IMG/VR virus record: IMGVR_UViG_2778261535_000013
Location: 1-43,950 of that record
DNA from: a virus
Lineage: Duplodnaviria; Heunggongvirae; Uroviricota; Caudoviricetes
DNA length: 43,950 nucleotides
Strand: one strand, 5' to 3'
The notes under the pieces: generated by a model
What the model saw: only the letters and a program-made list of their open reading frames with translations
What the model was told of the DNA's origin: nothing
Database searches by the model: none
Shown here: positions 8,714-29,210 of the stretch, one piece after another
Layout: every line of letters starts with the position of its first letter
Position numbering within the stretch: position 1 is the first letter of the stretch
Translations under genes and position numbers: made by a program

Positions 8714-9450
8714 TTAAAGCGAGCGGATGCCCACGCTGACCAGATGTTCAGACAGATCCGGCTCCGGTTCACCACCATTGACCAGCATCCGGCTCATTGC
8801 TGTAAACATCGCAACAGGGCCGTCGATTTTGGCTTCCGGCGTGGATTTATTCGGGAAGATGTTGTCGTTTTTGTCCGGTTTTACCGTAACGTTAGACATC
8901 ATCCAGTTCATGACCGGATGATTGCTGTGATGGAAACGCCCGGCATAGACCAGTGATTCCGTTTCCTTCATGGCCTCTGACAGATTGCGAACCGTCTGCG
9001 GAACCTCCACCAGCGGTATCCCTTCTTCAGCCAGTGCCAGGCTGAACTGCATCGCGCTCCACGGGTCAAATCCCAGTTCCCTGAGGTTTTCACCACCAAT
9101 CCATTCCAGTAAGTCACTTTTTATCTGAGCATGATCGATAACATCACCATCCGTCAGAATCAGCTTATCCATCTCCGCCCACTTCCGGTAAAGTTCTGCC
9201 TGCTGCCGCGAGCATCGTTCCAGCCGTCCTTCCGGAAGCCAGAATTTAAAATCGGCATGAACATGCCCGTTATCCGTTCGCCAGAGTTTTGCCGCCGCAC
9301 AGATATCAATCTTATGAGCAAGGTCAACGCCGACCCACATGGGATACGTTTTCAGCTCATGTCGTGGGGCAATGTATTCGCACTTCTCCCACTTAATCAT
9401 GTCCATCCAGGCAGACTCTGCTGTTACCCACACATTCATGTGTTTGGTAA
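8714..9450 (-). pseudogene. terL: terminase large subunit, C-terminal (nuclease-domain) fragment of an interrupted gene
   Basis: 241 aa ORF begins …TKHMNVWVTAESAWMDM…; the frame is open upstream only to the insertion junction at 9450; it continues the N-terminal fragment at 24089-25116 when the insert is removed. Confidence 0.8.
9444..9450. repeat. att core copy (TTGGTAA) at left junction of the inserted element
   Basis: identical 7-mer at 24089-24095; joining left flank plus core plus right flank restores the terL reading frame. Confidence 0.6.
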
Positions 9451-9525
9451 GAATATTTCAAGTTTTTTAAAATCACCTGTATATCAATCGTTTAACATGA
9501 AAAAACAGTCTTTATAAATCATCAA

Positions 9526-9546
9526 GCAATACACAGCGCAATACAC
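9526..9546. repeat. GCAATACACAGCGCAATACAC, candidate integrase arm-type site (left arm)
   Basis: near-identical 21-mer (one mismatch) at 23938-23958 just inside the opposite end of the element. Confidence 0.4.
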
Positions 9547-9731
9547 GTATCTGTATTGTTTTAATGCTGATACACACCGTTTTTTGATACAGTGATTCGA
9601 CCTACCATCGCGAAGAATTTTTTATTTCTTGTGTGTAACAATCTGACGAGGTGAGCACTCAAAGAGATAAGAGGCAGTAGAAATTTCGATCCCCCCTGAA
9701 TGCAATTTTTCGTATATATATACAAAACAGC

Positions 9732-9885
9732 GCGGGTTATGCGGGTTAGCGGGTTATCTTCGCGTGCTAAGCATTTTTTACTCTTTAATATCAATAAGTT
9801 AAAAAAACAACGTATTTAAATATCAGCCAGAATATAACCCGCAAGACATTCAAAATAACCCGCAAACACCCCTCAAATAACCCGC
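9732..9885. repeat. iteron cluster A: three tandem GCGGGTTA(T/G) copies, an AT-rich spacer, and three inverted ATAACCCGC copies
   Basis: direct reading of the sequence; the same 9-mer recurs at 17572-17694. Confidence 0.55.
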
Positions 9886-9966
9886 AAAAACATCCCTGAA
9901 AGTGGGCGCTGGTAATACTGAAAATTTATTCCATTAAATGAGCATTGTCCTCTCTCATCCATTCCG

Positions 9967-11628
9967 TTACACACCATCAAACGCCGCAAGCCGCTCTTTG
10001 TGGCTGTCGCTCATATCGAATGCAAATTCCTCATGCTCTGCCTGGAATGTGCCAAACGCCATCAGCGCCGCAACGCTCGGGTCTATCTTGTTGGATGATT
10101 TTTTCTTGTTCGGCTTGATATTGGCGTTCGCGTCACTCTGCATCACAACATTACTCATTGACCAGGCCAACACCGGATCACCACGATGCACAATCACCTT
10201 CCGGTTAACAAAAACTTCGAACGATTTCGCCGCCGGACTGAAACGAAGATATGTTTGCGGGAACGGCTCCACCTCAAATCCTGCTCCCTGTAGCTGCGTC
10301 CTCAGGTGCGTGGCGTTCCATGTATCGAAGCCCACCAGCCTGATATTGAAATTCTCTGCATCCGCCATGATGTCATCACGGATACGGTCATAATCAATGC
10401 AGTCACCCGGTGTTGTGCGTATCCAGCCCGCCTTTACCCACTGGCGATAGATGGCGCGGTTTTTATTGGCGGGATTCTGTAGCTGAAATTCCGGCAGATA
10501 GTGACGGGAAACCAGCATAATCTTTTTACCGACCGGGAAGGCATAGCACACGCTGGAAATATCGCTGGTTGATGATAAGTCCAGCCCCGCGTAGCACTCC
10601 TGCCCGTATAAATCCGCCTCCGCGAACGTTCCGGCACACTCCGCCCATGCACCGTTACCCATCCACGGCGTAGCCCCCTGACACCAGATATTGAATCGCT
10701 TGGTGAGCATTTCCACCCACTGCGACGGAATACCCCGCGCTTTCTGGATGGTTGAGGCCAGTTTTTCACGATCGACGGAAACATCGATATTGGGATTCGC
10801 CTTTATCCACATCGCCGGATCGTCAACCTCGCTTTCATCATCCAGCTCGTAAATCAGCACGAACATGGATTCGTTCACCTCTTCACCATCCAGTATCTGG
10901 CAGCAATAGTCGTAGTGTTGTTTACAGGCTGAAACAACGTTGCTCCCCGATGTGGTGATGGCAAATAATACCCCCTCTGGACGCGCCCCCATTCCCAGTT
11001 CAAGCGCGGAATAAACCCCGTTGTCAGGGTGCAGGTGATATTCATCCACAATGGCAAGACTCGGGTTTTTCCCCTCAATGGTTGCCGCTTTTGCTGCCAG
11101 TGGCGTTAACAGGCTGTTGGTTTTCGGGTGTATCACCTTGTGCGCCTGAATATTTACCCGCTTTCGTAACGGTCGGGATAAAAGGCACATCTGACGCGCA
11201 TCATCAAACACGATCCGCGCCTGATCACGACTCACGGCGGCGGTGTAAATATCCTGCTGCCCGTTTTCCATAACCAGAAACCAGTTAGCTAGGATAGCGG
11301 CGACCGTGGATTTGGCATTTTTTCGCGGTACTTCAATGAATGCGCTGGTGTATTTGCGCCGTCCGGTGGCCTTAACCTTAAAGCCCAGGATGCAGGAAAA
11401 GGCGAACTGCTGCCACGGCTCCAGTTCAATGGGGCTACCGCGCATTGCGCCTTTTACGTGCGGACACACCCTGGAAAAGGCAATAAACCGCTCCACGACC
11501 TCCTGATCGAACGTGTAAAGGGGGTTTTCGAGGTCAGAAAAATATCGTTTAACGGCCTGTTTCAGTCGTTTACAGGCCGTAATTTTGCCGTTTTTTACGC
11601 CTTCTGCGTACTCATGCCAGGCGGTCAA
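9967..11628 (-). CDS. terminase large subunit (element-encoded)
   Basis: 553 aa with ATPase-like N-terminal and nuclease-like C-terminal regions; translationally coupled to the upstream TerS. Confidence 0.9.
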   Translation of the reverse strand: MTAWHEYAEGVKNGKITACKRLKQAVKRYFSDLENPLYTFDQEVVERFIAFSRVCPHVKGAMRGSPIELEPWQQFAFSCILGFKVKATGRRKYTSAFIEVPRKNAKSTVAAILANWFLVMENGQQDIYTAAVSRDQARIVFDDARQMCLLSRPLRKRVNIQAHKVIHPKTNSLLTPLAAKAATIEGKNPSLAIVDEYHLHPDNGVYSALELGMGARPEGVLFAITTSGSNVVSACKQHYDYCCQILDGEEVNESMFVLIYELDDESEVDDPAMWIKANPNIDVSVDREKLASTIQKARGIPSQWVEMLTKRFNIWCQGATPWMGNGAWAECAGTFAEADLYGQECYAGLDLSSTSDISSVCYAFPVGKKIMLVSRHYLPEFQLQNPANKNRAIYRQWVKAGWIRTTPGDCIDYDRIRDDIMADAENFNIRLVGFDTWNATHLRTQLQGAGFEVEPFPQTYLRFSPAAKSFEVFVNRKVIVHRGDPVLAWSMSNVVMQSDANANIKPNKKKSSNKIDPSVAALMAFGTFQAEHEEFAFDMSDSHKERLAAFDGV

Positions 11629-11968
11629 GCTCGTCCTCCTCCTCTGTTTCCGGTGGATTTCTGCGGCGGCTTACCGGGTCAAAACCCAGCAAAGAAGCCA
11701 TTTTGATCATTATTCTTTCCGCGTCAGCCTTTGCGCTCAGGGCGGGGTTTCTGCTCTCGCTGCCCTGACTGTTAACAATGCTGAAGCCGCGCGTCGCAAG
11801 GTCTTCGACGGCTTTGCGGTATATGGAGTAGTTAACGCAATACAGTTCCAGATTGCTCCAGTCGGCGGGGGTAAGGTCTTCCCGCCCGGAAAGCTGGCGC
11901 GATTTTTCCTTCCACTGCCTGACCGCGATTTCATCCAGGTAAGCGGGGGCTTTTGGTGGTCTTGCCAT
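11612..11968 (-). CDS. terminase small subunit, P27 family
   Basis: likely start MARPPKAPAYLDE… at 11968; the ORF track extends further upstream to 12109; directly upstream of TerL. Confidence 0.7.
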   Translation of the reverse strand: MARPPKAPAYLDEIAVRQWKEKSRQLSGREDLTPADWSNLELYCVNYSIYRKAVEDLATRGFSIVNSQGSESRNPALSAKADAERIMIKMASLLGFDPVSRRRNPPETEEEDELDRLA

Positions 11969-12256
11969 GTTCTTTTTTCGCCCAATTATTTTCAAAAAAA
12001 TTCCCGTGCACAAAAATTTGAGGAGGCGGTCGGTGTCCGGCAGGGACGGTTTTGTCCTGAAAACCTCCCCCACCCCCTCTGACGGCCTCACCAGCGATTG
12101 CGAAAACATTCCATGACCTCGCGGTCACGGTCGGTTAATTGCTTCGCTGTGGTGCGTTCTGTGCGCCCTGTCCTGTTGGCTTTGTGCCCTGTCTCCTGTG
12201 TCTTCCATAAGTCACGCTGCCTTATCAGTCCACGTATCAGCCTGTTTTGCTCCTGT

Positions 12257-12697
12257 TCAGTCATCATCGCCATACATCCAGTCGTTACGGTGTGCCGCCC
12301 GTTCTTCCTGCTCGCGATACATGCCCGCCTTACGGTTCGCTTTCGTGGCTGGATCTTCCCGTGTCGTCTTACGGTTGTGGCACGTCTGGCACAATGCCTG
12401 GTGATTCCACTCAGGCCAGAAGAGAACATCACCGCCGCCATTGATGGGAATGATGTGATCCACCACAAGAGCTGGCGTATAAATCCCCTTAGCCAGACAA
12501 CGCACGCATAACGGGTTTTTGCTCAGGTACAGGGCGCGGTATTTGTCCCACTGTCGGGAATACCCGCGCGCGCGGCGGTGTCCCCGTCTGGCATCCTCTG
12601 CACGCCATGCAGCCCGCCTGTGCTCTTCACACTTTCCGGACTTCACGCGCTTATTACAGCCCGGCTCAGTGCAGCGCCTTAATGGTTGCCACGGCAT
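12257..12697 (-). CDS. HNH endonuclease (packaging-associated)
   Basis: 146 aa with Cys-rich N-terminus and VVDHIIP…H…C HNH motif; positioned next to TerS. Confidence 0.8.
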   Translation of the reverse strand: MPWQPLRRCTEPGCNKRVKSGKCEEHRRAAWRAEDARRGHRRARGYSRQWDKYRALYLSKNPLCVRCLAKGIYTPALVVDHIIPINGGGDVLFWPEWNHQALCQTCHNRKTTREDPATKANRKAGMYREQEERAAHRNDWMYGDDD

Positions 12698-12996
12698 CAG
12701 TACACCCCCACATCACGATAAACCGACCAGAGCGCAGAAATAGCCATAGGCAGTTCAGACTGCTCCACAGGTGAAACCGCTTCCCTGTTCTCGTACAGGA
12801 AAGCGATGTACATCAGGCAACCAACACGTATTGCCGGGGTAAATTCCAGCCCGTCTTCAAAACGTTTCCCGATATGCTTCTGGCAGGCTTCCAGCGCCGC
12901 ATCGGTATACATTTTCAGAAGTTCGCCTTCTCCGGAAAAGTCATCAAGGCGAAGATGTGCCCTGACTTCATCAGGTGTAATTTTGTCTTCACTCAT
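12697..12996 (-). CDS. head-tail connector (gp6-like)
   Basis: likely start MSEDKITPDEVRAHLRLDDF… at 12996; similar in pattern to the resident gp6-like protein. Confidence 0.6.
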   Translation of the reverse strand: MSEDKITPDEVRAHLRLDDFSGEGELLKMYTDAALEACQKHIGKRFEDGLEFTPAIRVGCLMYIAFLYENREAVSPVEQSELPMAISALWSVYRDVGVY

Positions 12997-14203
12997 CTTT
13001 TTCACCTTTAATTTCCACAGTCTGCTTCCATGCCTGGCTGAACTCGTCGCCACCTTCACGCGGCGGCATTCCCTCACGCTCACGGGCTTCGTTCGGATTC
13101 ATGATCCCGTTCTTAATCCCTTTCTCATACGTGGCGTAACGTTCAGTAGGTGTGGCGCGCAGTAAATCGGCTGAATCAAACTCAACCAGATAACGGGTAC
13201 CAGGTACGGGAGAAGCCACCAGCAAAGCGGCCTTGATTTGCTGTTCGAAGTTCGCCAGCCACGGACGCATTGTCATAGTCAGAAACGCGCGGCTTGCCTC
13301 ACTGAAATTGCTGTAGGTGCTGTTGCTGTATTCCTGCAGAAAAATCGGCGACACGTTGAACATCCGGGCGATGTCTTCAATGGAGAAGCGACGGGAGGCC
13401 AGCCATTCCGCATCCTGGTTACTCATCCCCAGTTGCTTGTAATCCATGCCCCCTTCAAGGATTGGCGTTTTTCCGGCATTTTTCGCCCCCTTGTAGCGTT
13501 CCAGTGCGTCTAATGCCTGTTTACCTTTCACGCCGTCCAGCCATTCGCCTGACGTGATAATCCCTGCCGCCATCATGCCATCTTTCATAATGCTGGCTCC
13601 GTGACGCTGTTGAGCAAGGCCAAGCCCCAGCGCCTCACGGCAAATCGTGATGGGGGAGCGTCCCAGAAAGCCATCATCCGAGGCATAGCGGAGATGCAGA
13701 ACTTCTTCCTGTAAATACGTGCGCACCGTTCCTGTACAGGGTTCGGTGATGGTATAGCGGTATTTGTGTGCGCCTGTGCGTTCCGGTACAACACACCCCG
13801 GCGCATAAGGATGAAGTGATTTTGGCTGACCGTCCCGCCCCCATTCAATAACCGCATAGGCGTTACCGTTCAGCAGGCAGTGACGCATCATTGTGCGTTT
13901 AAACTGGTAAGGTGTCTGGCACGAATTAGGCTGCTCATTCAGCAGAATATCTACCGGATGACTGTCCAGCCATTCCCGCGCCTCCCTGCCCTTGTCATTA
14001 CGTACCAGATACAGATAACACGGCATCGTGGCCACCGCCTCAGCGATGACGGAAACCGCGTTCATCACTGCGGGCAATGATTCAGCCGTCCCGGCAGAAA
14101 CATATTCTCCGGATCCGGTATTCGGTACGCCGGACAGCACCAGAAAATCATCAATGGACAGGTTACGTTGCTCGCTTTTTTTACGACTAAAAGGCCACCA
14201 CAT
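12989..14203 (-). CDS. portal protein, HK97 family
   Basis: likely start MWWPFSRKK… at 14203, one nucleotide after the protease stop; the ORF track extends upstream to 14422 across the protease gene. Confidence 0.8.
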   Translation of the reverse strand: MWWPFSRKKSEQRNLSIDDFLVLSGVPNTGSGEYVSAGTAESLPAVMNAVSVIAEAVATMPCYLYLVRNDKGREAREWLDSHPVDILLNEQPNSCQTPYQFKRTMMRHCLLNGNAYAVIEWGRDGQPKSLHPYAPGCVVPERTGAHKYRYTITEPCTGTVRTYLQEEVLHLRYASDDGFLGRSPITICREALGLGLAQQRHGASIMKDGMMAAGIITSGEWLDGVKGKQALDALERYKGAKNAGKTPILEGGMDYKQLGMSNQDAEWLASRRFSIEDIARMFNVSPIFLQEYSNSTYSNFSEASRAFLTMTMRPWLANFEQQIKAALLVASPVPGTRYLVEFDSADLLRATPTERYATYEKGIKNGIMNPNEAREREGMPPREGGDEFSQAWKQTVEIKGEKDE

Positions 14204-14204
14204 A

Positions 14205-14765
14205 TCACAACCCCGCCAGCTCTGCCCAGCGATGACGATTATTTCCTGCCGGGCGTAATTCAGGGTGCTGTGCAAACAACGAACGGTGGGCAATCTCCAC
14301 GCCAGATTCGGGATAAGCAGGCATCGACGTGATCGTGATTTCCCTGAGTTCTGCAGCGGTAACAGTACGCAGATACGGTTTTTGCGCGATATTCCACTCT
14401 TCGCATAATGCGCGAAAGCCAAAGCTCATCCCTGTAATGTCGCCACGCTCCACCAGCGTAAGCACATCTTTTCCAAGCTGGGTATCAGGCGGTGTCAGTT
14501 CAAAACGTAGCCCGGTGTTGTCCTCAGTCAGTACCAGAGTGCCGGATTTGGTGCGCCCCAGCAGTTGGGTATAGTCATGCTCATACAGGCAGCGCACATC
14601 ATTACCCGCCGCCAGATAGTCAGCAAAAGCCCCCGGCGTGAACTGTTCGCGGAATTCGTCCCAGATAATTTCTGAAAGGCTGTTCCAGCGAACGGCATAC
14701 CCCACCAGCTTTTTATTGCTGGCGGTCAGTTCAGATGTGCGGATTTCAAAATCGGTGTTTTTCAT
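14205..14765 (-). CDS. prohead protease, HK97 family
   Basis: 186 aa; sequence pattern of HK97 prohead proteases; lies between capsid and portal genes. Confidence 0.85.
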   Translation of the reverse strand: MKNTDFEIRTSELTASNKKLVGYAVRWNSLSEIIWDEFREQFTPGAFADYLAAGNDVRCLYEHDYTQLLGRTKSGTLVLTEDNTGLRFELTPPDTQLGKDVLTLVERGDITGMSFGFRALCEEWNIAQKPYLRTVTAAELREITITSMPAYPESGVEIAHRSLFAQHPELRPAGNNRHRWAELAGL

Positions 14766-14819
14766 CGGTGTACTCCATAAAGCTGAAAAAGGAGGCCGCA
14801 GCCTCCTCCTTACTCATGA

Positions 14820-15989
14820 CTAGCCAGCTTTCATTTCCAGAATTTTGATGGCGTTTGAATCCACCACACCACCGCCCAGATATTTATCCGTGTGGACCTT
14901 GTAGAATCCGGGTTCAGTAATGTTGTCCGGTCGGGTGCGAATCCCTGTTACATGATCAACGATGAAATAACCACGACTGAAATCGCCAACCGCTAGCGGT
15001 GCTTTTCCTGCGCCGATGTCCGGCATGGACTCCAGGCAGAAAACAGGACGACCAAGCAACATATCCGGCGCACCTTCTTTAAGGCTGTCGCGCCAGATAT
15101 AATCGCCATTCTCATTTTTCAGCTTCTGTAGTGTCCCTGCCGTGCCCGAGTTCATCACCCAGACGGCATTTTTGCGGTATTTCGCTTTCAGCTTGTAGAG
15201 AATGTCGATCAGTTCGTCCGCTGTAATGGCGGTTCCACTTGCCGCTACCACTTTTTCAATGGTGCCAAAAGCGCGGGTTTTGTCACTGGTCGCCGCACGG
15301 GTGTAAGCCATGAAGCCTTTCGGCTTGCCGTTACCGTCGCCATTAACAAAATCATCCTCTTCGGTGCTGGCGAACGTGTCGGCAATTTCGGAGGATAACC
15401 AGCCCAAAATATCCACCTCTGAAAAATCCAGGATTTCCTGCGTGGTTTTCGGGTAGGCGTAGATCTGATTCAGCTTGATGGTTACACGTTCAATTTTCGG
15501 GGTGTTGGTTTCACTACGTGCGCTGCCTTCTGTGCCTCGTCCTACAGTTGCGCCGCCAGTGGAAACCAGTTTCTGAAACTCATTTGATTTTGCGGTCTTC
15601 ACGGTCGCGATCACGCGCATAACACTGTCATCCTGTAGCTGGCGCATGACTTCGCGATCAAGCTCAGGAATTACGGTATATCCGCCATCCCTGCCGCTGT
15701 CAGTGCTGGTGGACAGTGATCGCACATCTCCGGTTACGATGTAGTTACGCAATTCATCAGATGATAATTTCTGGATGCCCGTTCCTGGCTTGCTGCGTTC
15801 TTCATCAGCCACAGACTCGAGGCGGTAAATTTCTGTGTCGAGGGAATCGGCTTTTGCACGCAGTTCATCAAACTGTTTGCCCTCGTCATCGTTCAGGCTG
15901 CGGTTTTCACTGTCGGCTTTTTCCAGCAGGGATCGCATCTGGTTTTTCAGGGCGGTTTTTTGCTGGCGGAGTTCGATTAATTTCTTCAT
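14820..15989 (-). CDS. major capsid protein, HK97 family
   Basis: 389 aa; N-terminal coiled-coil region then capsid-fold sequence closely paralleling the resident capsid protein (…GDGNGKPKGF…). Confidence 0.9.
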   Translation of the reverse strand: MKKLIELRQQKTALKNQMRSLLEKADSENRSLNDDEGKQFDELRAKADSLDTEIYRLESVADEERSKPGTGIQKLSSDELRNYIVTGDVRSLSTSTDSGRDGGYTVIPELDREVMRQLQDDSVMRVIATVKTAKSNEFQKLVSTGGATVGRGTEGSARSETNTPKIERVTIKLNQIYAYPKTTQEILDFSEVDILGWLSSEIADTFASTEEDDFVNGDGNGKPKGFMAYTRAATSDKTRAFGTIEKVVAASGTAITADELIDILYKLKAKYRKNAVWVMNSGTAGTLQKLKNENGDYIWRDSLKEGAPDMLLGRPVFCLESMPDIGAGKAPLAVGDFSRGYFIVDHVTGIRTRPDNITEPGFYKVHTDKYLGGGVVDSNAIKILEMKAG

Positions 15990-16226
15990 GAAGGTTTTCT
16001 CGTATTGGTTAAGATTCAGGACGTGAAACCAACACGGAGGGAGCGCCGCCCGACACTCTCGGCATCTCGCAGATCAACCCGGCATCGCGCAGGGGGTCAG
16101 GCGGCATTGTGGCGGCTCACGTCTGAGTGCCACACGCCAACATATACATAAAAATCAGTATGTAAACATCAGCCAGAATCACCGAACAACCTGGAACAAC
16201 CACGAACAAATAATTTACAAAACCTG

Positions 16227-16255
16227 AAAAAAAGACCTGGAGAAAATCCAGGCCT
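16227..16255 (-). terminator. intrinsic terminator after the replication/accessory operon
   Basis: minus-strand stem CCTGGA/TCCAGG with loop, followed by TTTTTTT. Confidence 0.5.
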
Positions 16256-16263
16256 TTATCGCT

Positions 16264-16512
16264 TTATTGTTTCACTGGATCCCGCATTCTGCGTCTTATT
16301 TTCCACAGATATTCGATCATCGCTTCCACCTGCTCACGATTGGTTGCGAAAATTTCCCCGGTCAGTGAGCTGCGCAGAAAATCATGATGATCCACAACAA
16401 ACAACGCATCGGAAGAAAGCAGACGGCGATATTTTTTTGCTGTCGTGGTTTCCAGATCATCAAAACCATGAAACTTTTTATGTTGCTGGACTTCTTCAAA
16501 TGTCACTGGCAT
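16264..16512 (-). CDS. hypothetical protein
   Basis: 82 aa ORF overlapping the ProQ/FinO-like gene stop; no motif. Confidence 0.35.
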   Translation of the reverse strand: MPVTFEEVQQHKKFHGFDDLETTTAKKYRRLLSSDALFVVDHHDFLRSSLTGEIFATNREQVEAMIEYLWKIRRRMRDPVKQ

Positions 16513-17045
16513 GTATCCCCCTTTGCTGCCCGGCGCTGGCGCTTGTGCTTCTCATTCAGCGCCATCAGCCGCGTTTCTGCCTCCTGCTGTTCCTGTGGTG
16601 TCACTTCCCCACATGGCTGGCCTTTCAGGTCGTATCGTACCCCACCAGCAACCAGGGCGCGGTAATAGCGCGGAGACTGCGCATAAGATGCCAGCGTCGC
16701 ACGTAATGCCCCCGGCCCGAATGCCAGCCCCCTGACGGCGAGATCCTGCATCAGGTCGTCGAATATCCCCACCTTAAGCGGCTTCGGTGCTTCCCTGTTG
16801 AATAAGTCAGGCCACATCTCAGTGAGGCGGTTAACGCGCCTGCGGTTTTTGCGCTGGCGTTTGGTCATATGCCGCCACGGTGTCACCCCTGTGGGCTGCC
16901 CTTTGCGGCTCTGCTGTGCGTTCTGATTGCCGGGTATCACTTTATGCGCCGATGTGGTTTTATCCCGCTCTTGCGCCGCCTGCGTCGTTTTCTGCGGCGT
17001 GCCGTAAATGCCTTTCGGTTTTCGGTTAATGGTCAGCTTTGTCAT
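16503..17045 (-). CDS. ProQ/FinO-domain RNA-binding protein
   Basis: C-terminal region …WPDLFNREAPKPLKVGIFDDLMQDL…YAQSPRYYRAL…RYDLKGQPCGEVTPQE… aligns by eye with the ProQ N-terminal FinO domain; basic N-terminus. Confidence 0.7.
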   Translation of the reverse strand: MTKLTINRKPKGIYGTPQKTTQAAQERDKTTSAHKVIPGNQNAQQSRKGQPTGVTPWRHMTKRQRKNRRRVNRLTEMWPDLFNREAPKPLKVGIFDDLMQDLAVRGLAFGPGALRATLASYAQSPRYYRALVAGGVRYDLKGQPCGEVTPQEQQEAETRLMALNEKHKRQRRAAKGDTCQ

Positions 17046-17081
17046 GCCTTCCCCTGTAATTACTCTGTTCGCTGTTGTGAA

Positions 17082-17507
17082 TTAAAACTGTATGTTATCC
17101 CCGTACAGGTCATCGTGCTGGCCTGTCTGTTGTTTTGCCCTGTTCAGTGCGTCAGTGGCCTGCCCCTGTTGGCCTTTTTTGCCGCCCGGTCGCGCCGTTC
17201 TCGCACTGATTACGCTGTCTGCGATGACCTGCCAGCCCTGCCGCGTTTCGCCGTTCTGCCCTGTCCACTGGCTTACCTGCATGTTACCCGCCACGTTCAC
17301 CAGTTCGCCTTTGCGGTGTTTTGCCAGTGCGTCGGCCTGTCTGCCAAACGCCAGGACGGATAACCACATCGTCGCCGTTCCGTCATCTGCCTGGCTGCAT
17401 GGCAGGGGAACCGCCATACTCGCCATCGCCATTTGTGTTCCCTTGCTGGTGGTCTTTAACTGCGGGTCAGCCACCAGCCGCCCGTAAGCCGCTATCTGTG
17501 CTGTCAT
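17082..17507 (-). CDS. ssb: single-stranded DNA-binding protein
   Basis: 141 aa; N-terminal OB-fold-like sequence, Gly/Gln-rich linker and acidic C-terminal tail DDLYGDNIQF. Confidence 0.7.
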   Translation of the reverse strand: MTAQIAAYGRLVADPQLKTTSKGTQMAMASMAVPLPCSQADDGTATMWLSVLAFGRQADALAKHRKGELVNVAGNMQVSQWTGQNGETRQGWQVIADSVISARTARPGGKKGQQGQATDALNRAKQQTGQHDDLYGDNIQF

Positions 17508-17571
17508 GCTGTCTGCTCTCCGGTTTTAACGTTGATGGTTACGCTTGTTTACACCCTTACGGTGAAATTCT

Positions 17572-17694
17572 GCGGGTTATAATCGCACTTTTGCGGGTTA
17601 TAACTGCCGTTTTGCGGGTTACGTGCGGGTTATTGATTTCCTTTTTATTCATACAGTTAATGCACTTATATACATGATAACCCGCATAACCCGC
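17572..17694. repeat. iteron cluster B: four GCGGGTTA(T/C) copies, an AT-rich spacer, and two inverted ATAACCCGC copies; candidate origin
   Basis: direct reading; lies immediately downstream of the replication gene. Confidence 0.6.
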
Positions 17695-17717
17695 AACTTT
17701 TCACCTCACACAGGGGG

Positions 17718-19841
17718 TTAATCTTCTGCCTCAGGCTGGAACATCAGCACGTAAAAAACATGCTGCTTCCCCCCAATTTTGCCGAGCGCCTTTTTCTTGT
17801 AACGGCGATCGTTACCCGCTTCCAGCATTCCGGCAGCACTCAACGCGCGGGCAAAGTGAGACGGATTAAATCCCTGTGCTATCTCACCCTCAAATACATG
17901 CGGGAACGTGTAAAAACGGAACTCGTCATCTTCGTTTCTGATACTCCCCTTTCTGTATCCGGCAAGTTCTTTAATCGGTAAATCACGCTCGTCGGTATTG
18001 GGCCACGGAAGGTATCTGCTGAATCCGAACGACGCTAAAAAAGCTTCTGCCTGTTCAACCATCTGTTTAAATTCCCTGTTACCCGTGCCGAACTCCTTCA
18101 CCCAGGCATTAAAATTATGCTGTATGGCATCGCGGCATTCCTGCTCATCCCAGCCAGTAACATGACCTGAAAGCACAAGCGCGGCCTCCAGTATGGCAAA
18201 TCGCTCCCCCACACGGTGAACCTGTTCGCCGTAGCTCTCCGGTATCAGGTTGCGCCACCGCTCACGGCATGTCCTTACCGTGTCCTTTGCCTCCTGCTGG
18301 TGTTCTGCCAGCCATTTAACCCACTCACGACCCGCCGCCCCGTGATTTTCTGTCCAGGCATCCTTTAACGCGTCTGCGTGCGCCTTTCCGGTGCTGTATT
18401 CGTGAAATTGCGTGGCTTTTTCCATCGGAACGTTAAGCAGGCGGACAAGCTGCCCCGCTTTGACTTTTATCCCCTCCGTTTTGAGGAATGTCTCAACGTC
18501 CATTTCTCCGGTGCTGATTGCCACCGTGCGCCAGTGTTTGATCTCCCTGTTGCCGCCGTCCTTCGCCCCCTGTAATTTCCCCGAACCGTTAAACAGCGTA
18601 TAGGCTGACGTGGACACCTCCCGCGCGTTTCCGGCCTGGCCTATTTCATCCAGGGGTAAAAGCCCGTCATTGTGTGCCTCTGCTTCGTTGGCGATACCTA
18701 ACGCTGTGCCGTACCAGGTCAGCCGCTGCGCGTCCGGCTCTCCCCATAAACTTGATGCGATGTTCTGTGTGGTGGTTTTCCCTGCCGATGACTGTTCGAA
18801 AAGATGTACCCCGAAGCCGTCAGCGCCCACCAGCCCGATTAATGGTGCGGATAACGATACCGCCACACCCAGCATCATGGACGGATTACCACCAGCCAGC
18901 CGCGCAACGGTATCGCGCCAGCCCTCCGCCGTTCCTGCCACGGAATAGCCATTAACAGCAGCCGTTTTTCCGGTAAACAGGACTGGCTTTTCGCAATCAC
19001 CAATGACCGAACCGTCCGGCATGATGTACGCGCCAAAATGCCAGCCCGTTGTTGTGCTTAACTGCCATTCCTCATGGCTTCCGCTTAACTGCATCCAGTC
19101 AGCCAGGATAGCCCTGTATTTACCGTTGGTTGTTACGTTCAGTCCGTGGTCTTTCAGCAACCGCCAGCCGTCACGGTCGCCAATGCCACCGCACGGAACC
19201 GCCATTGTGATGACTTCATGGTTTGCTAATTTTTTCCAGCGCATCACGCGGTAATGCTCTTTACCGATTGTCCCCGTTCCCAGTAGTTCAAGCGGGGAAC
19301 ATAACCACGTCTCAGGCCGGATAATTTCGCCTGACTGCTTATCCACTTTTGGCGTTACCCAGAAAACACCATCGGCGCGACTTTCAACGCGGGGCTTTAA
19401 TTCATCATCGCCCTGGATTTCTGTGATTTTTTTCTTTAAGGGCAACACCAGACTTTCCCCGCGCTCGTATTCGTCTTTGAGGCGAGGCAACTGGTCGGAT
19501 AAATCCGCCGGGCTGATGTCAGTTATCCCCGCGTATTCGTATACGGTCTTCACGCCAGCCACAGCCAGCAACGTGACGATCTGTGTAAGGCTACGTTCAG
19601 TGATGTGCCCTGCGCGGTAAACACGCACACACTGACGGCTATCATCAATAATTTGATAACCGGTAATATCTTTCAGGTGTTCATCTGACAGAACGACAGG
19701 CGGCACATTGTCGGCGGCAATATGCTTACCTGCCCATTCCTGCCACTCTTTCGCATGGCTCCACGCATCACTACCCGCAAAGATGATAACCTCCGTCATT
19801 TTGTCGGCTGGCTGGTGCTTTAAGTTTGGTGCGCGCTTCAT
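17718..19841 (-). CDS. replication protein, primase-helicase-like, with Walker A motif
   Basis: 707 aa; GxxxxGKT (…EQSSAGKTTT…); size and position beside the iterons match PICI/P4-type replication proteins. Confidence 0.65.
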   Translation of the reverse strand: MKRAPNLKHQPADKMTEVIIFAGSDAWSHAKEWQEWAGKHIAADNVPPVVLSDEHLKDITGYQIIDDSRQCVRVYRAGHITERSLTQIVTLLAVAGVKTVYEYAGITDISPADLSDQLPRLKDEYERGESLVLPLKKKITEIQGDDELKPRVESRADGVFWVTPKVDKQSGEIIRPETWLCSPLELLGTGTIGKEHYRVMRWKKLANHEVITMAVPCGGIGDRDGWRLLKDHGLNVTTNGKYRAILADWMQLSGSHEEWQLSTTTGWHFGAYIMPDGSVIGDCEKPVLFTGKTAAVNGYSVAGTAEGWRDTVARLAGGNPSMMLGVAVSLSAPLIGLVGADGFGVHLFEQSSAGKTTTQNIASSLWGEPDAQRLTWYGTALGIANEAEAHNDGLLPLDEIGQAGNAREVSTSAYTLFNGSGKLQGAKDGGNREIKHWRTVAISTGEMDVETFLKTEGIKVKAGQLVRLLNVPMEKATQFHEYSTGKAHADALKDAWTENHGAAGREWVKWLAEHQQEAKDTVRTCRERWRNLIPESYGEQVHRVGERFAILEAALVLSGHVTGWDEQECRDAIQHNFNAWVKEFGTGNREFKQMVEQAEAFLASFGFSRYLPWPNTDERDLPIKELAGYRKGSIRNEDDEFRFYTFPHVFEGEIAQGFNPSHFARALSAAGMLEAGNDRRYKKKALGKIGGKQHVFYVLMFQPEAED

Positions 19842-20152
19842 TTTGCCTTTCCCCGTTCACGAATAATTTCACGTACTGCCTTAATGCGTTCCATTCCTGT
19901 AACGCGCATGATTCTGTCGATGTCGCTTAATTCTGCTGGTGGTGCTTTACTTACCAAGGTGAACTCCCTGTCAAAGCGCATATGTGACGACACGCAGGGA
20001 TGCGCATAACCTTCGCGGATATAGGTCACACGAAAATCATCGACGGTTTTGATCGTTATCGTGCTGCCGTATTTATCCTGGAAAATATCGCCGGGGCGGA
20101 TTTCAGGCCGAGCGGGGCCGCTGGCAGTAAAGCCAGAATTTTTCTTTTTCAT
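19838..20152 (-). CDS. hypothetical protein
   Basis: 104 aa ORF, stop overlaps the replication gene start. Confidence 0.4.
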   Translation of the reverse strand: MKKKNSGFTASGPARPEIRPGDIFQDKYGSTITIKTVDDFRVTYIREGYAHPCVSSHMRFDREFTLVSKAPPAELSDIDRIMRVTGMERIKAVREIIRERGKAK

Positions 20153-20157
20153 GTTTT

Positions 20158-20406
20158 TTACTCCAGAGGCAGCTTTTTAGCGGCGAGCTCAATATCAGAT
20201 GTCAGAGAAACCTGTGTATTTGCCAGGTCTAACAACAAAGAAATAAGAATTTCTTCTCTGCTATCGGATTTATCGGTGCTAAGGCTGTTCATCCACATAT
20301 TGACGACTTCCCTGATTTTTTTCGCAGAGTGCAGGGCTTCAAATGCCAGGTCTTCAATATCATGTTTATTTCGCATAATCGCCCCCGCCATTTTCACAAT
20401 CAGCAA
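20158..20406 (-). CDS. hypothetical protein
   Basis: 82 aa ORF; true start uncertain. Confidence 0.35.
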   Translation of the reverse strand: MLIVKMAGAIMRNKHDIEDLAFEALHSAKKIREVVNMWMNSLSTDKSDSREEILISLLLDLANTQVSLTSDIELAAKKLPLE

Positions 20407-20611
20407 TCAGGATGGCTTTTGCCTCATTCAGCGCCGTATCAGCACTAAATTGCATGACAGCCAGTGAGTGAGGAACGAAAGCCCCGGCATATTCTGTTTC
20501 GCTGGTGGCGTGCTTATGCGCCTTGTCTGCGATAACAGAAATATCAATCAGCGCGTGCATCAGCGTTCTGATGGCTTCGGCGGCTGCGTCCGGACGGGTG
20601 TTATTACACAT
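20366..20611 (-). CDS. hypothetical protein
   Basis: 81 aa ORF; its ATG overlaps the stop of the upstream 67-aa ORF (ATGTGTAA) with AGGAGG RBS. Confidence 0.4.
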   Translation of the reverse strand: MCNNTRPDAAAEAIRTLMHALIDISVIADKAHKHATSETEYAGAFVPHSLAVMQFSADTALNEAKAILIADCENGGGDYAK

Positions 20612-20807
20612 GGCGTACCTCCTGACGAATACGGGCAGTAAATACCATCACGCAGCCGGCCGGGGATTGCTGGCGGGCTTCCTGTTCGCTGGTGGCCTCA
20701 ATGGTAATCACGCGCGGCTTAGCCGTGCTCAGGGCGATAAAACGCCAGATGTATTTATTCAGGTTGTGCGAGTCCCGCCCTTTCGGGTGTGTGGTATGAT
20801 TTAACAT
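20604..20807 (-). CDS. hypothetical small protein (67 aa), first gene of the leftward operon
   Basis: ATG at 20807 with RBS; corresponds to the C-terminal 67 codons of a long low-complexity ORF-track entry that is otherwise implausible. Confidence 0.4.
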   Translation of the reverse strand: MLNHTTHPKGRDSHNLNKYIWRFIALSTAKPRVITIEATSEQEARQQSPAGCVMVFTARIRQEVRHV

Positions 20808-20904
20808 AGCTACCTCGATACTTTCGCTATCGTTGGTGGTTAGAAGCCCCGTTACTGCTCCAACAGTGCGGGGTTTCGTCGTTTCTGCACCTTGCATAAA
20901 CAAG

Positions 20905-20985
20905 GTGTAAGACACAATGTAAAGCAGCAGTGTCTTACACGTCAATCCTTCAAAATAATTTTTTTTCGTGTATATTGTCTTACAC
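20905..20985. promoter_or_regulatory. divergent promoter region with three copies of operator GTGTAAGACAC / GTGTCTTACAC
   Basis: inverted pair at 20905-20915 and 20930-20940, third copy at 20976-20985 overlapping a TATATT -10-like hexamer about 30 nt upstream of the RHH gene. Confidence 0.5.
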
Positions 20986-21006
20986 CAAAAACATAAGGAG
21001 TTAGAC

Positions 21007-21186
21007 ATGGCAACAGGTCCAAAGAATGCAAAATCACAATCTGTAACTGCACGTATTGCCCATGAAATTATTGAAGGCATGGAAAAAGTGAAAGAAGAAG
21101 GCGAAAGTACAGGGCAGTTTATAAGCGCAGCCATGCGTGGCGAGATCAAACGCCGCCAGCGCCGCAAGGCCAAAGAGCAGGAGTAA
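21007..21186 (+). CDS. small ribbon-helix-helix-like regulator
   Basis: 59 aa from ATG 21007 (MATGPKNAKSQSVTARIAHEIIEGMEK…) with GGAG RBS; sequence pattern compatible with RHH/CopG-type DNA-binding proteins. Confidence 0.45.
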   Translation: MATGPKNAKSQSVTARIAHEIIEGMEKVKEEGESTGQFISAAMRGEIKRRQRRKAKEQE

Positions 21187-21243
21187 CCATCACCAGCGCC
21201 GTGGTGAGAGTAACTACGGCGCATTGCTATGCAGGTGCTTACC

Positions 21244-21423
21244 ATGAACGATAAAGAGTTAAAAAAAACACCACCACAAACACGGAAAGGACAGCGCAAA
21301 AAGATAGCGCATGAGCATGAATCAGAAAGATTCGCCCCCTGTGCGTTTGCTCTTGAGAAATTCCTTAAGGAGCACAAGAAAAAGCTATCATTGCAAACCT
21401 GGGAACGAACCGAATCTGACTGA
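21244..21423 (+). CDS. hypothetical small basic protein
   Basis: 59 aa from MNDKELKK… downstream of the RHH gene; no motif. Confidence 0.3.
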   Translation: MNDKELKKTPPQTRKGQRKKIAHEHESERFAPCAFALEKFLKEHKKKLSLQTWERTESD

Positions 21424-21516
21424 TCAAATTGCCCACCAGCCAGCAAATCGCTATGATGTTCGGGCTTATGTTTAGTGTTTTCCCATTGGCGACCGCCCCC
21501 GGTCGCCTTTGTTTTG

Positions 21517-22095
21517 TCACTGAATGCAGTTGTCAAAGTAAAACTCAGGCTGATATTCACGTATCAGCCTTTTTTCTTCTTCCTCCAGTTCACGCTTTTT
21601 GCGCTTACAGGCCTGTAGCTCCCTCCCCTTCTCACTGGCACTTATTTGATATTGCTCTTTACGGCGGGAAAAATCCTGCAATGCGCCCCACGGGATACCA
21701 TAAGCCCCTGTCTTTCTGATACCTGGTATCACATTCCTGAATACCCAGTTACTGAAACGATGAGCAAATGTGCCAGGCGTCGTTGCTTTGCGGCTGCGGG
21801 CTATTAGTTTGTAGAAACCTGACTCAGAGATAATGCTCATATTCTGATTTCCTCCGGGGGTGTAAGTTAAATTTACTCCCTTTTCATCATCATCAAGCAT
21901 CTGCAACGCCGTACGCGAATTGGTCAGTTCCAGCGCAGCGCAAACATCCTTTGCAACAAACCACGGATCGCCGTTCAGATACACCACGCGAACGTTCACA
22001 CCATCAAAGCGCAGAACGACCAGATCACGAATATCACAGAATTTTTTCACATGACGTGCGTCACCCTTGCCCGTCACGGCAATATTTTTATTCAT
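21517..22095 (-). CDS. Bro-N domain protein (antirepressor-like)
   Basis: …GDPWFVAKDVCAALELTNSRTALQMLDDDEK… matches the conserved Bro-N core. Confidence 0.7.
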   Translation of the reverse strand: MNKNIAVTGKGDARHVKKFCDIRDLVVLRFDGVNVRVVYLNGDPWFVAKDVCAALELTNSRTALQMLDDDEKGVNLTYTPGGNQNMSIISESGFYKLIARSRKATTPGTFAHRFSNWVFRNVIPGIRKTGAYGIPWGALQDFSRRKEQYQISASEKGRELQACKRKKRELEEEEKRLIREYQPEFYFDNCIQ

Positions 22096-22152
22096 CGCTT
22101 TCTACCTCACATACAAAAAACCCCGCATTGCGTGGTGCGGGGTTGTCGGTAA

Positions 22153-22431
22153 TTACTTATTGGCGTTTTTGTATGGGCTGTTTACTTCCTTTACTCCTGG
22201 CGGATGCATAACCCACCAGAGCACATCAGAGAGCAACCAGGAAACAGACACTTTCCCTAAATGAGCACGAGCAGGAAATGCTCCCTCCTGTTCAAGTACC
22301 CAACGTCTGCTTCTTGAAAGCCCGGTACGATTGGCACACTCATGTTCGCGTATACGGCGATCATACGGTTCGCCATGCTCTTTCAGAATCTGAATGCGTT
22401 CTTCGGGTGTAGGATAAATAAATTTTTGCAT
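22153..22431 (-). CDS. AlpA-family regulator (excisionase-like)
   Basis: likely start MQKFIYPTPEE… at 22431; …TGLSRSRRWVLEQEGAFPARAHLGKVSVSWLLSDV… matches the AlpA HTH pattern. Confidence 0.65.
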   Translation of the reverse strand: MQKFIYPTPEERIQILKEHGEPYDRRIREHECANRTGLSRSRRWVLEQEGAFPARAHLGKVSVSWLLSDVLWWVMHPPGVKEVNSPYKNANK

Positions 22432-22494
22432 AAAAATATCACCTATAAAAAAACCCGCCAAAAGACGGGTTGATTATATCTCATTTAATTTAGC

Positions 22495-22728
22495 TCAGGG
22501 TTTCCATTCACCCTTTACCCATTCCAGCACCTCAGATAAGCGCCAGACTTTTGTTTGTGGGCCAATACATATTTTTCGTGGAAATTTTCCTTCCTTTTCA
22601 AGTAACGATCTGTGTCTCCTGCCAAGAGCAGTTAACCATGCACATTCATCTTCCTTAATCATCCTGTCGATTGTTTTATCATTTTCAAGTTCTTCACGCG
22701 TAACTATTTGAATCATTACCATCACCAC
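22495..22728 (-). CDS. AlpA-family regulator (second copy)
   Basis: …LLEKEGKFPRKICIGPQTKVWRLSEVLEWV… matches the AlpA pattern; immediately downstream of the integrase gene. Confidence 0.6.
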   Translation of the reverse strand: MVMVMIQIVTREELENDKTIDRMIKEDECAWLTALGRRHRSLLEKEGKFPRKICIGPQTKVWRLSEVLEWVKGEWKP

Positions 22729-23917
22729 TAATTAGCTTATTCAGGTAGTCGTACCACCAGTTCATAGCTTCTTTTTTTCTGTCCATATACTGGCTTCTGT
22801 TATAAACCCCGGCAACACCGCCTAATGTGTGCCCAAGCAACTGTTCAACCACATTATGTTCAAAACCATGATCACTTAGCTTTGTGGCAAACACTCTTCG
22901 CATATCATGCGCCGTCCATTTCTCCGAGTGTTTCATCCTTTTCCATGTCTTACCGATAGTTACGCTTGCCGTACACTGACGCATATCAAACCCAATCACA
23001 TTTTCTTTGTTACCTGTTATTTTTTTTAACGTAACTAACCAGTTAAACATGCCATCAGGAATCGGTCTGATTATTTCCCTGCCATTTTTGCTATGATCAG
23101 CGGGAACGCGCCATAATTTCTTATCAAAATCCCACTCTCCCCAGGAGGACAGTAATACTTCTGACAGTCGGCAACCAAAAACTACCAGGAAACGTAAAAT
23201 AATTCGGTTTTCATATGATAATTCGTGATTGTCATAATCAGTATTAATACTTCGCCATAAATCTCTGATTTCATCATCTGTTAAAACCCTGCTTCTTCGC
23301 GCAGACTTTTTTCCCACATCACAGACCTCAAGATCATCAATTTCATGACTAATCGCGTATTTTCTTACCCGACAAAATTTAAGCGCCTGTTTTGATATAC
23401 GCAATAAAGCTCCGGCCTGTACAGGTGCTACTTTTTTTATTTTGTCAAAGCACTTGATCCACATAGATATTGAGCAATCACTAAGTGGTACATGACCAAT
23501 CACCGGATAAATATGTTTACCAAAGCACTGCCTGATATGTTCTGCTCCCCTACGCTTATCCATTGCATAATTATCAAGCCAGTATTCAAGCGCCTCACGA
23601 ACGGTAACAGGTTGCAAGGTGGCTTCCCGTTCAATTTTTATCTGAATCCGTGGATCTCTGCCCTCCGCAAGCCAGGTTCGACACTGATCGCGCATCTCTC
23701 TCGCTGATTTGAGACTCAGATCAGGATATTTTCCAAGTGTCAGCCAGATGGGCGCGGTTCCCCTTCCCGCCAGTCTGTAAAAGAAAACAAAACTAACACA
23801 TCCGTATTTACTGACCCGTACCGAAAGCCCGTTACCATCAGCGATGGTTTCCTGCCTCTCACTCCTGCGCCCAAGCAGGGAACGAAGTTTTTTATCGCTC
23901 AGTTTGTTTAGCGCCAT
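22694..23917 (-). CDS. int: tyrosine integrase, P4-type
   Basis: likely start MALNKLSDKKLRSLLG… at 23917; C-terminal catalytic region …HDMRRVFATKL…LLGHT…YNRSQY; adjacent to the right junction. Confidence 0.9.
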   Translation of the reverse strand: MALNKLSDKKLRSLLGRRSERQETIADGNGLSVRVSKYGCVSFVFFYRLAGRGTAPIWLTLGKYPDLSLKSAREMRDQCRTWLAEGRDPRIQIKIEREATLQPVTVREALEYWLDNYAMDKRRGAEHIRQCFGKHIYPVIGHVPLSDCSISMWIKCFDKIKKVAPVQAGALLRISKQALKFCRVRKYAISHEIDDLEVCDVGKKSARRSRVLTDDEIRDLWRSINTDYDNHELSYENRIILRFLVVFGCRLSEVLLSSWGEWDFDKKLWRVPADHSKNGREIIRPIPDGMFNWLVTLKKITGNKENVIGFDMRQCTASVTIGKTWKRMKHSEKWTAHDMRRVFATKLSDHGFEHNVVEQLLGHTLGGVAGVYNRSQYMDRKKEAMNWWYDYLNKLISGDGNDSNSYA

Positions 23918-23937
23918 GTGATTTATAACCCGTTTTT

Positions 23938-23958
23938 GCAATACACAGTGCAATACAC
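23938..23958. repeat. GCAATACACAGTGCAATACAC, candidate integrase arm-type site (right arm)
   Basis: matches 9526-9546 with one mismatch; 20-40 nt upstream of the int start codon. Confidence 0.4.
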
Positions 23959-24088
23959 AAATGATGAAAACAGCCAGAACCTTCCAGAAAAAACAAAAAC
24001 GACGAACAAGAAAAAATCTTTTTCTTTCATTTGGTTACTAAAAAAATCAGGACAGGCCGCACTGTTGTTACGGCGTGATGTTACGTTC

Positions 24089-24095
24089 TTGGTAA
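24089..24095. repeat. att core copy (TTGGTAA) at right junction of the inserted element
   Basis: identical to 9444-9450. Confidence 0.6.
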
Positions 24096-25116
24096 AAAAA
24101 TTCACCCGCGCAGAGACCTGTTCTTTCGCTTTTTTCGCCAGGCGACGCAGATCATCCCAGCGTTTACAGATGCCCAGGCCGGGATTCGCTTTCTGCCAGA
24201 CCGTTTCATCAAACGGATCATCTCCCTCATCGAGGGTGTAAATAATCGCAAAGTAGGAGTCGTCTTTTACCGCGCCCTCCACGTCGCTGTTATAGCCACG
24301 CAATACCTTGATGGCGTAATCACGCTGCTCGTAACAAATCCCTTCCTTGTTAAACCCTGCCGTGGTGATACCAAATAAAAGGGACTGCAGACGGGCACCG
24401 GTTGCCGTTTCCAGAACGTCCCACACGTCACGGGTTTTATGTGCATGCAGCTCATCAATAATGGCGCAGTGGATGTTCAGACCATCCAGGTTGTTTGCAT
24501 CCGAAGAAAGCGGTTCAAATTTTGATGCGCTCTGCTCCTGGTAAATCGCCAGCTTGTTGAAATCAAACAACCGCCCGAGTGTCGACCGGGCTTTTCTGAC
24601 CATATTTTTGGCGTCTTCAAACACGATTCTGGCCTGGTCACGCGTAGTTGCGGCTGAATACACCTCAGCACCGCCTTCACCATCTGCCCCCGTCATATAC
24701 AGACCGATACCCGATGACAGGGTTGATTTTGCGTTTTTACGGGCGACTTCGTTGTACGCCGTCCGGAACCGGCGCACCATCACCGGACGTCCGCTGCCAT
24801 CGCTGCGCATGACAACTTCCCCGGTCTCTTCATTGACCAGCGGAATGACAAAACCAAAAATATTAATGAGGATAAATACATGCCAGTCCATCAACTCAAT
24901 AGGCTGGCCTGCCAGCGCCCCTTTTACATGAGGCACAAATTTGTAGAAATTCAGGATGTGCTGCGCACGGGGTTCACTGAAATAAATCCCCCGCTCTTCG
25001 CCGTACTTCAGATCATCAAGAAAACGCTGGCAGGCCAGACGGACAAATTCGCCAGCGACAATTTCTCCTGCAACAACACGTTCGGCGTAGCGGATCCCGT
25101 CAGCCACTTTTGCCAT
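24089..25116 (-). pseudogene. terL: terminase large subunit, N-terminal (ATPase-domain) fragment of an interrupted gene
   Basis: authentic terminase sequence up to …QVSARVNFFTK at the junction, then about 50 codons of element-derived sequence before a stop at 23923; ORF-track entry 23923-25116. Confidence 0.85.
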
Positions 25117-27615: not shown

Positions 27616-28037
27616 AGATACTGCTCCAGCGGCAACTGCAGCGCCTGCGCAATTTTCTTGAGCTGTGCTTCTTCATCCGGACCAATGCCGTCCTGGTCAG
27701 CGATATCCAGACACAGGCACAGCACATCAACCGCTTCGGCGGTTCCTGCCACATCAGCCAGTTCACGCAAAGCCTGAGCATTCGCACTACGAGGTGACGC
27801 TTCATAACGGGCGCGGATATTTGCACTCATTTGTGCAATCTCACCGGAGAACGGCGCAAAGGCAGGAAGTGCTGCAATGGTTTTTTCCAGTACCGCAATT
27901 TCTTTCGCGTCACAGGTGCCGTCAGCGTATGCAATGGAATACGCACCCCAGACGGTTGCCTCCACTGCGTCGCGGTTCTCCATCTTCTTCACTTCGGTAA
28001 TGGCCTTGCGGGTTTTCTTTTTGAAAATACCAAACAT
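27612..28037 (-). CDS. TerB-like domain protein
   Basis: 141 aa; sequence pattern …YADGTCDAKEIAVLEKTIAAL… and …DIADQDGIGPDEEAQLKKIA… resembles TerB-family repeats; first gene of the lysis cassette. Confidence 0.45.
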   Translation of the reverse strand: MFGIFKKKTRKAITEVKKMENRDAVEATVWGAYSIAYADGTCDAKEIAVLEKTIAALPAFAPFSGEIAQMSANIRARYEASPRSANAQALRELADVAGTAEAVDVLCLCLDIADQDGIGPDEEAQLKKIAQALQLPLEQYL

Positions 28038-28354
28038 CGTGACGTTTCCTTTTAGTGGGTGAGCCTCCGCCCTGGGGTGACCAGCCCACAGAGAAAGTCA
28101 CACTGACCATCCCGTAAGCTCACCCCTGAAAGGCTCTGTGGTTTTTGATGTGCGCCGGGCGTGACGCAAAGAAATGAAATAAGAATTACCTGAAATTAAG
28201 GTTAATCTGAGGATTTAAACCATTTTTAATGCTTAGTAATATAAATACGTCTCTCTGGAGGAGAGAGATGCTTATTCTTCTTCATGGACTTTGTCCCGCG
28301 GCTTTAATCCGACAGCCGCGCCCTTTTTTCGCCAATATAAACCGGGTTGAACTC

Positions 28355-28379
28355 ATACAAAAAGCTCGCCGAAGCGAGC
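28355..28379 (-). terminator. intrinsic terminator downstream of tRNA-like gene 1
   Basis: minus-strand stem GCTCGC/GCGAGC with loop TTCG, followed by TTTTTGT. Confidence 0.45.
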
Positions 28380-28407
28380 CTGTTAAAAGTATATTTACCG
28401 TTACAAA

Positions 28408-28490
28408 TGGACCGTCACCGGGGACTCGAACCCCGCACCACAAAACAACAATACGTGTTATGCACTCTTACCCGATGAGTTAGTGACGGT
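28408..28490 (-). tRNA. tRNA-like gene with non-canonical anticodon arm (possible GUA anticodon), may be a pseudo-tRNA
   Basis: perfect acceptor stem CCGTCAC/GTGACGG, T-arm CGGGG-TTCGAGT-CCCCG and CCA end, but the anticodon arm only folds as ATAAC-ACGTATT-GTTGT with C at position 33. Confidence 0.45.

Positions 28491-29135: not shown

Positions 29136-29210
<75 letters not shown>

Follow-up and report, generated by a model that had tools for sequence, protein, structure and literature searches.

The window analysed here (the whole stretch of 43,950 nucleotides, positions 1 to 43,950 of IMG/VR record IMGVR_UViG_2778261535_000013) contains a resident prophage whose large terminase gene, terL, is interrupted by a satellite at a 7-bp repeat that reads TTACCAA on the coding strand (Table 1). 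The insertion lies at the F-T-K codons of the helper terL, across the 7-bp identity block, and truncates the helper TerL, while fusing both helper parts across one copy of the core gives back an intact 585-aa TerL reading ...ARVNFFTKHMNVW... / ...AKEQVSARVNFFTKHMNVWVTAES... at the joint. The truncated helper TerL continues for 57 codons into satellite DNA. Both helper fragments overlap residues 307-327 of the satellite's own TerL in tblastn; a duplicated terL segment was considered as the reason and rejected, the N-terminal fragment just entering unrelated satellite sequence.

The two att copies lie 14,638 bp apart and the satellite genes are all on the minus strand. Their order, according to Pfam matches, is int, two AlpA genes, Bro-N, DUF4222, a DUF927 primase, SSB and ProQ, followed by late genes which Pfam and the RefSeq annotation of identical or near-identical copies identify, in this order, as HK97-type capsid, protease, portal, connector, HNH, TerS and TerL. 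No tail or holin genes are annotated between the two att junctions in the three annotated copies checked. Gene content and the split helper terL bear out the original prediction that this element is a satellite, and it is of the capsid-forming PICI type, seated in the terL gene of a lambdoid/HK97-like prophage.

Table 1. Features of the satellite and of the interrupted helper terL, in window coordinates
Feature	Coordinates	Strand	Basis or remark
Whole satellite, helper-embedded capsid-forming PICI	9451..24088	-	split terL and annotation
Helper terL, N-terminal part	24096..25116	-	tblastn, ORF
attL (published orientation), 7-bp identity block beside int	24089..24095	-	TTACCAA coding / TTGGTAA plus
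Second doubled TGTATTGC motif, co-oriented with the first	23938..23958	-	134-154 nt from core centre
Tyrosine integrase, Arm-DNA-bind_3 and Phage_integrase domains	22694..23917	-	likely ATG 23917; mechanical ORF from TTG 23953
AlpA-family excisionase/regulator adjoining int	22495..22728	-	Phage_AlpA match
Second AlpA-like gene	22153-22461	-	
Satellite's own terL, 553 aa, TerL_ATPase and TerL_nuclease	9967..11628	-	ORF, domains
Own-terL codons E-M-L-T-K-R-F, homologous to helper attB codons N-F-F-T-K-H-M	10693..10713	-	BLASTP alignment
Doubled TGTATTGC motif of the HE-PICI attP arm	9526..9546	-	79-99 nt from core centre
attR (published orientation), 7-bp identity block far from int	9444..9450	-	TTACCAA coding / TTGGTAA plus
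Helper terL, C-terminal part	8714..9443	-	tblastn, ORF

Several further features of the locus were recorded. The open reading frame of the truncated helper TerL (25116-23923) crosses attL and the int-side doubled motif and ends at a TAA (23925-23923) located 5 nt ahead of the int ATG, and int expression could be tied to helper late transcription and translation through this frame; 'terminase/int fusion' annotations have been flagged among relatives (PMC10111431 table). Between its lysis and regulatory regions, the resident prophage carries five tRNA genes (Val, Gly, Thr, Lys and Met; 28408-29445), and the otherwise closest genome, that of strain EC416, has tRNA-Arg and tRNA-Ile at that place, so that the helper prophages differ on this side. 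EC416 (NZ_AP027404.1) holds the same satellite at 100% identity plus an IS1414 copy, absent from the window, between the YlcI-like gene and the Bro-N gene (27931-29139, about window 20900-21500). Because of its low-complexity sequence, a mechanical open reading frame of 318 aa (window 20604-21560) looks spurious.

The window contains 15 copies of the octamer TAACCCGC, as compared with 1.25 copies expected, and 12 of them are grouped in two clusters within the satellite. The first cluster (9732-9885), located in the 516 bp of non-coding DNA that separate the own terL from the att junction, consists of three inverted and three direct copies which surround an AT-rich stretch. In the second (17572-17694), six copies follow immediately downstream of the DUF927 primase gene. 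The clusters look like replication-origin iterons, and one of the two is possibly near cos.

Membership in a published site group

Helper-embedded PICIs (HE-PICIs) were described as satellites with an integrase clade directed at 14 sites within the late genes of prophages (Tommasini, Mageeney & Williams 2023, NAR Genom Bioinform, PMC10111431), and one site group, A:Terminase_1:246, has 61 members in Supplementary File 1 of that work, with an att identity that is mostly 'ttaccaa'. The satellite in the window is an HE-PICI of this group, and the system is thus already known. Its attL is identical to that of Eco10990.15.A_Terminase_1_246 at 162/163 positions, its attR matches that of Eal37.16 at 146/154, and the satellite together with one copy of the core measures 14,645 bp, equal to the published members of gene profile 27 (PMC10111431). 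The close relatives in E. coli 042, O177:H21 and UMNF18 are named in the same Supplementary File 1, the E. coli 042 relative recovered by similarity search being the listed member Eco33.15.

The insertion also has the form by which HE-PICIs are recognized, since it lies in a prophage late gene, is co-oriented with that gene and brings no replacement sequence. The integrase contains Arm-DNA-bind_3 and Phage_integrase domains and has two Phage_AlpA genes alongside, its putative placement in the HE-PICI clade being made through the near-identity of the whole element to listed members. The arm motif, specific to HE-PICIs according to the same paper, is a doubled tgTGTATTGCantgTGTATTGCa present in two co-oriented copies at 81 +/- 2 and 132 +/- 2 bp either side of the attP centre (PMC10111431); the tgTGTATTGCantgTGTATTGCa copies found here are on one strand, with their nearest edges 79 and 134 nt from the core centres.

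The satellite's own terL at the homologous codons

At 10693-10713 the window reads GAATCGCTTGGTGAGCATTTC, and its reverse complement GAAATGCTCACCAAGCGATTC encodes E-M-L-T-K-R-F. The 7-mer TCACCAA within these codons (plus-strand TTGGTGA, 10700-10706) matches the core TTACCAA at 6/7 positions, and an ungapped BLASTP alignment sets the helper residues NFFTKHMNVW over EMLTKRFNIW of the own protein. The one-base difference between own terL and att core had been pointed out in the original prediction, and sequence and BLASTP agree with its codons, 7-mers and coordinates. It had also remarked that the flanking bases differ, which they do: only 2/10 of the bases adjoining the core are common to own site and attB, the other 8/10 being unlike, and 16/27 positions match when 10 nt of flank are counted on each side.

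How much meaning a near-match of this kind can bear was judged from the background similarity of both genes. Own and helper TerL share 31% protein identity and 46% nucleotide identity over aligned codons, and when the genes are scanned in aligned windows of 7 nt, 6/7 or more positions agree in 6.7% of the windows. With L-T-K taken as conserved and Leu and Thr codons used at the frequencies of the element, the probabilities of no, one and two mismatches are 0.06, 0.40 and 0.54, respectively. The 6/7 match is no better than chance, and one mismatch is near the modal outcome.

The state of this 7-mer was then read in those 80 relatives from IMG/VR that are closest to the own terL, with 92-100% amino acid identity, where it is TCACCAA in 52, TGACAAA in 27 and TTACTAA in 1. 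A terL junction is present in only 17/80. Among these 17 satellites, TCACCAA in the own terL is combined with a TTACCAA core in 12 cases and with a TCACGAA core in 4, and TGACAAA with TTACCAA in 1; the exact core is found in the own terL of 0/17 sampled terL-targeting satellites, which amount to only about two independent lineages. Thirty-six TCACCAA carriers among the 80 relatives are not at the terL site and diverge from the window right past the terL stop. The same 21-mer GAAATGCTCACCAAGCGATTC is present, identical, in satellites located at fis (MS6198) and between allE and allC (AST19), which have other integrases and the same late module, and it must therefore be regarded as a lineage state and not as a response to terL targeting. 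The TCACCAA state comes with the late module, independent of terL targeting.

The late module from capsid to terL, with terL at 98-99% protein identity, is paired with three integration modules at three sites (terL, fis and allE/allC), which clearly illustrates how modules are exchanged among E. coli cfPICIs.

A search of IMG/VR with GARATGCTTACCAARCGNTT for satellite-type terL genes having the exact core yielded 59 loci, all of them relatives at 67-82% identity. Neither the HE-PICI integrase nor the doubled motif was found among these 59 exact-TTACCAA loci, so they offer no direct test of the protection idea. The presence of the exact core in 59 distant terL genes, as against 0/17 terL-targeting satellites, is compatible with avoidance, with little weight given the about two lineages behind the latter figure.

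The original prediction went further and suggested that the single T-to-C difference could protect the own terL. In an adaptive form of this idea, the substitution would have been selected as it breaks the identity of the overlap with attP and so spares the packaging gene from intramolecular or inter-copy recombination. Such adaptive self-protection is decidedly improbable. It can draw on the facts that the own terL is never occupied, that 17/17 sampled terL-targeting satellites are without the exact core in their own copy and that exact TTACCAA is present in more remote satellite terL genes that go with other integrases, and recombination would presumably be deleterious with own site and attP co-oriented. 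Nevertheless, the identical 21-mer occurs in fis- and allE/allC-targeting satellites, one mismatch is expected 40% of the time, the flanks are already unlike at 8/10 positions and the sample is nearly clonal; moreover, satellites with a TCACGAA core keep TCACCAA in their own terL, so that the 'protective' position would have to vary from case to case. Together with cores that prove swappable (see below), these observations speak against protection by that one base. A more general version, in which helper-embedded satellites with their own copy of the targeted late gene are under selection to keep this copy non-recombinogenic, TCACCAA being maintained and not merely inherited, is also improbable. 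If true, it would mean that the choice of codons at the homologous motif makes a satellite immune to targeting itself, and a selected safeguard of this kind would oblige satellites to edit captured late genes in order to escape their own integrase, a small constraint on late-gene capture.

It is also very unlikely that the pattern reflects a compatibility filter, in which no substitution event took place and only late modules without an attB-like terL persist with this integrase, a matter of survivorship and not of adaptation. Integration and late modules do recombine freely, as one late module with three integrases and sites attests, and no terL-targeting satellite with the exact core in its own terL was found among those sampled. 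However, no module of this terL clade with an attB-like site was found either, which leaves nothing to filter, and the flanks are unlike attB in every satellite-type terL sampled.

Core sequences and occupancy of the sites in nature

The 7 bp shared by attL and attR vary within the group. The published cores of A:Terminase_1:246 are TTACCAA (44), TCACGAA (11), TCACAAA (2) and a longer Arsenophonus block (4), and ttaccaa and tcacaaa are both present within each of gene profiles 44 and 51 (PMC10111431 table). Satellites with the TCACGAA core are ~98% identical to the window satellite over 5.2 kb, as close as TTACCAA-core satellites are among themselves. In 80 empty helper-type terL genes, the same position holds TTACCAA in 60, TCACGAA in 11, TCACAAA in 7, and TCACCAA and TTACTAA in 1 each; none of these synonymous core changes alters the protein, and the flanks (gtgaattttt / acacatgaatgtg) hardly vary. 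The occupied cores track the available cores, and the 7 bp would appear to be an exchangeable crossover segment rather than the recognition determinant. Exact TTACCAA also occurs at 19951 and 23517 within the satellite, two copies being roughly what any 7-mer would give in 14.6 kb, so the 7-mer alone cannot define the target.

The TCACCAA of the own terL is one base off each of the used cores (TTACCAA, TCACGAA and TCACAAA) and equals a natural helper attB variant. An attP or attR arm joined to a TCACCAA core (CTTGAAATATTCTCACCAA) has 0 matches in IMG/VR, so that no satellite is known to have a core equal to the 7-mer of its own terL; this counts neither for nor against selection. Unlike cores at attL and attR of one element would be direct evidence that integration tolerates mismatches, and the published table has only matched identity blocks (PMC10111431).

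Core-type inverted repeats were also read by eye, and the pattern TTC-N7-GAA seen in attP is absent from attB and own terL; it was set aside as too weak to use. The entry off-A_246.Eco2384.15 (PMC10111431 Supplementary Files 3 and 4) is one case in which this integrase group inserted off target, in the yeaN region, and there only the GAA just right of the 7-mer is common with attP and the attB-side 7-mer is TTGCACT (3/7 match). This case suggests that rare integration events tolerate heavy overlap mismatch.

Among 5426 complete E. coli genomes surveyed for natural occupancy, 36/5426 have the occupied helper junction and 901/5426 the empty helper site. These counts, along with the 61 published members, show that the integrase does target a conserved TerL motif in helper prophages, as the original prediction had supposed. 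A chimeric junction of own-type terL with the int-side attP arm was found in 0/5426 genomes, though ~500 of them carry that terL type and ~19 occupied own-type genes would be expected at the helper occupancy rate of ~4%. The satellite-type terL is really a non-target, as had been predicted, and this is unsurprising given its flanks.

As a secondary attB, 10693-10713 falls short in overlap, flanks and natural occupancy alike, and it shows no sign of being a functional att site. That it might nonetheless serve as a secondary attachment site or decoy used at low frequency is barely credible, for the 6/7 core match and the rare off-target insertions by this integrase group (Eco2384 at yeaN, only GAA common with the att site) are outweighed by the want of any chimeric junction in the ~500 E. 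coli genomes with this terL type, of any TCACCAA-core attP or attR in IMG/VR and of attB-like flanks.

Interpretation and relation to known systems

The reading that best accounts for these data is that 10693-10713 is ordinary coding sequence, that its near-match to the core is a by-product of a conserved TerL motif, and that it is a non-target through overall divergence and not through one selected substitution. We hold this to be very probably correct. The data do not require selection for the observed base.

In lambda-type integrases, the overlap must match between the recombining partners and the flanks carry recognition, and for lambda Int a single overlap mismatch strongly depresses recombination. 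The conserved TerL motif that serves as attB in the helper terL is [L/F]-T-K-x-x-N-x-W, located where the nuclease domain begins. On a lambda-type model, the tyrosine integrase, acting with AlpA and the doubled TGTATTGC arm motifs, would bring about recombination between attP and the helper terL over a 7-bp overlap. The overlap and the core-type binding sites are predictions drawn from sequence. The overlap would probably have to match between partners, yet would not itself be recognized by the enzyme, recognition being located instead in flanking bases that are near-invariant in helper attB and not common to satellite terL. Both genes have the Thr-Lys codons and one base of the Leu/Phe codon before them in common, and this accounts for the 6/7 core match. 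The own terL would escape because it is only 31% identical to the helper TerL. From the effect of a mismatch on lambda Int, the T/C difference, a single overlap mismatch, would add some further, redundant barrier for this particular attP. Own site and attP being co-oriented, an event between them would split the circular satellite, so avoiding it may well be beneficial.

The evidence as a whole favours this simpler story, in which the near-match follows from a conserved protein motif, and the element, its att site and a remark on self-integration are already in the literature. The group nevertheless provides a natural data set, with an integrase group that accepts at least 3 overlap sequences with constant flanks, and a ready design for a specificity assay.

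Compared with A:Terminase_1:246, the satellite in the window has the same target codon, 7-bp block, size, attL, arm motifs with their spacing and co-orientation with the late operon, as well as the same four zones (int/AlpA, Bro-N, replication and late genes). There is no substantive difference, and the own-terL codons of this group are absent from the discussion in PMC10111431. For the sibling element 11capE, it was stated earlier that a satellite's own copy is likely kept from self-integration by its differences in sequence (PMC10111431), and the idea of a protected own terL is the terL-group analogue of that remark.

With regard to the cfPICI class of SatelliteFinder (Moura de Sousa & Rocha 2023, PMC10085698), the integrase, AlpA, primase, HK97-type capsid, protease, portal, head-tail connector, HNH, TerS and TerL are all present here, in an element of ~14-15 kb without tail or holin genes, a likeness in gene content to a class that forms its own small capsids and takes only the tails from the helper. 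What sets this satellite apart is its position within a late gene of a helper prophage, instead of at a chromosomal site. The chromosomal cfPICIs at fis and allE/allC have the same late module and the identical terL 21-mer. Finally, the satellite has in common with the att sites of lambda-type tyrosine integrases a 7-bp attL/attR identity block and an arm-binding domain in the integrase, along with repeated arm motifs on both sides of the attP core and an overlap, here a predicted one, that varies while its flanks stay constant.
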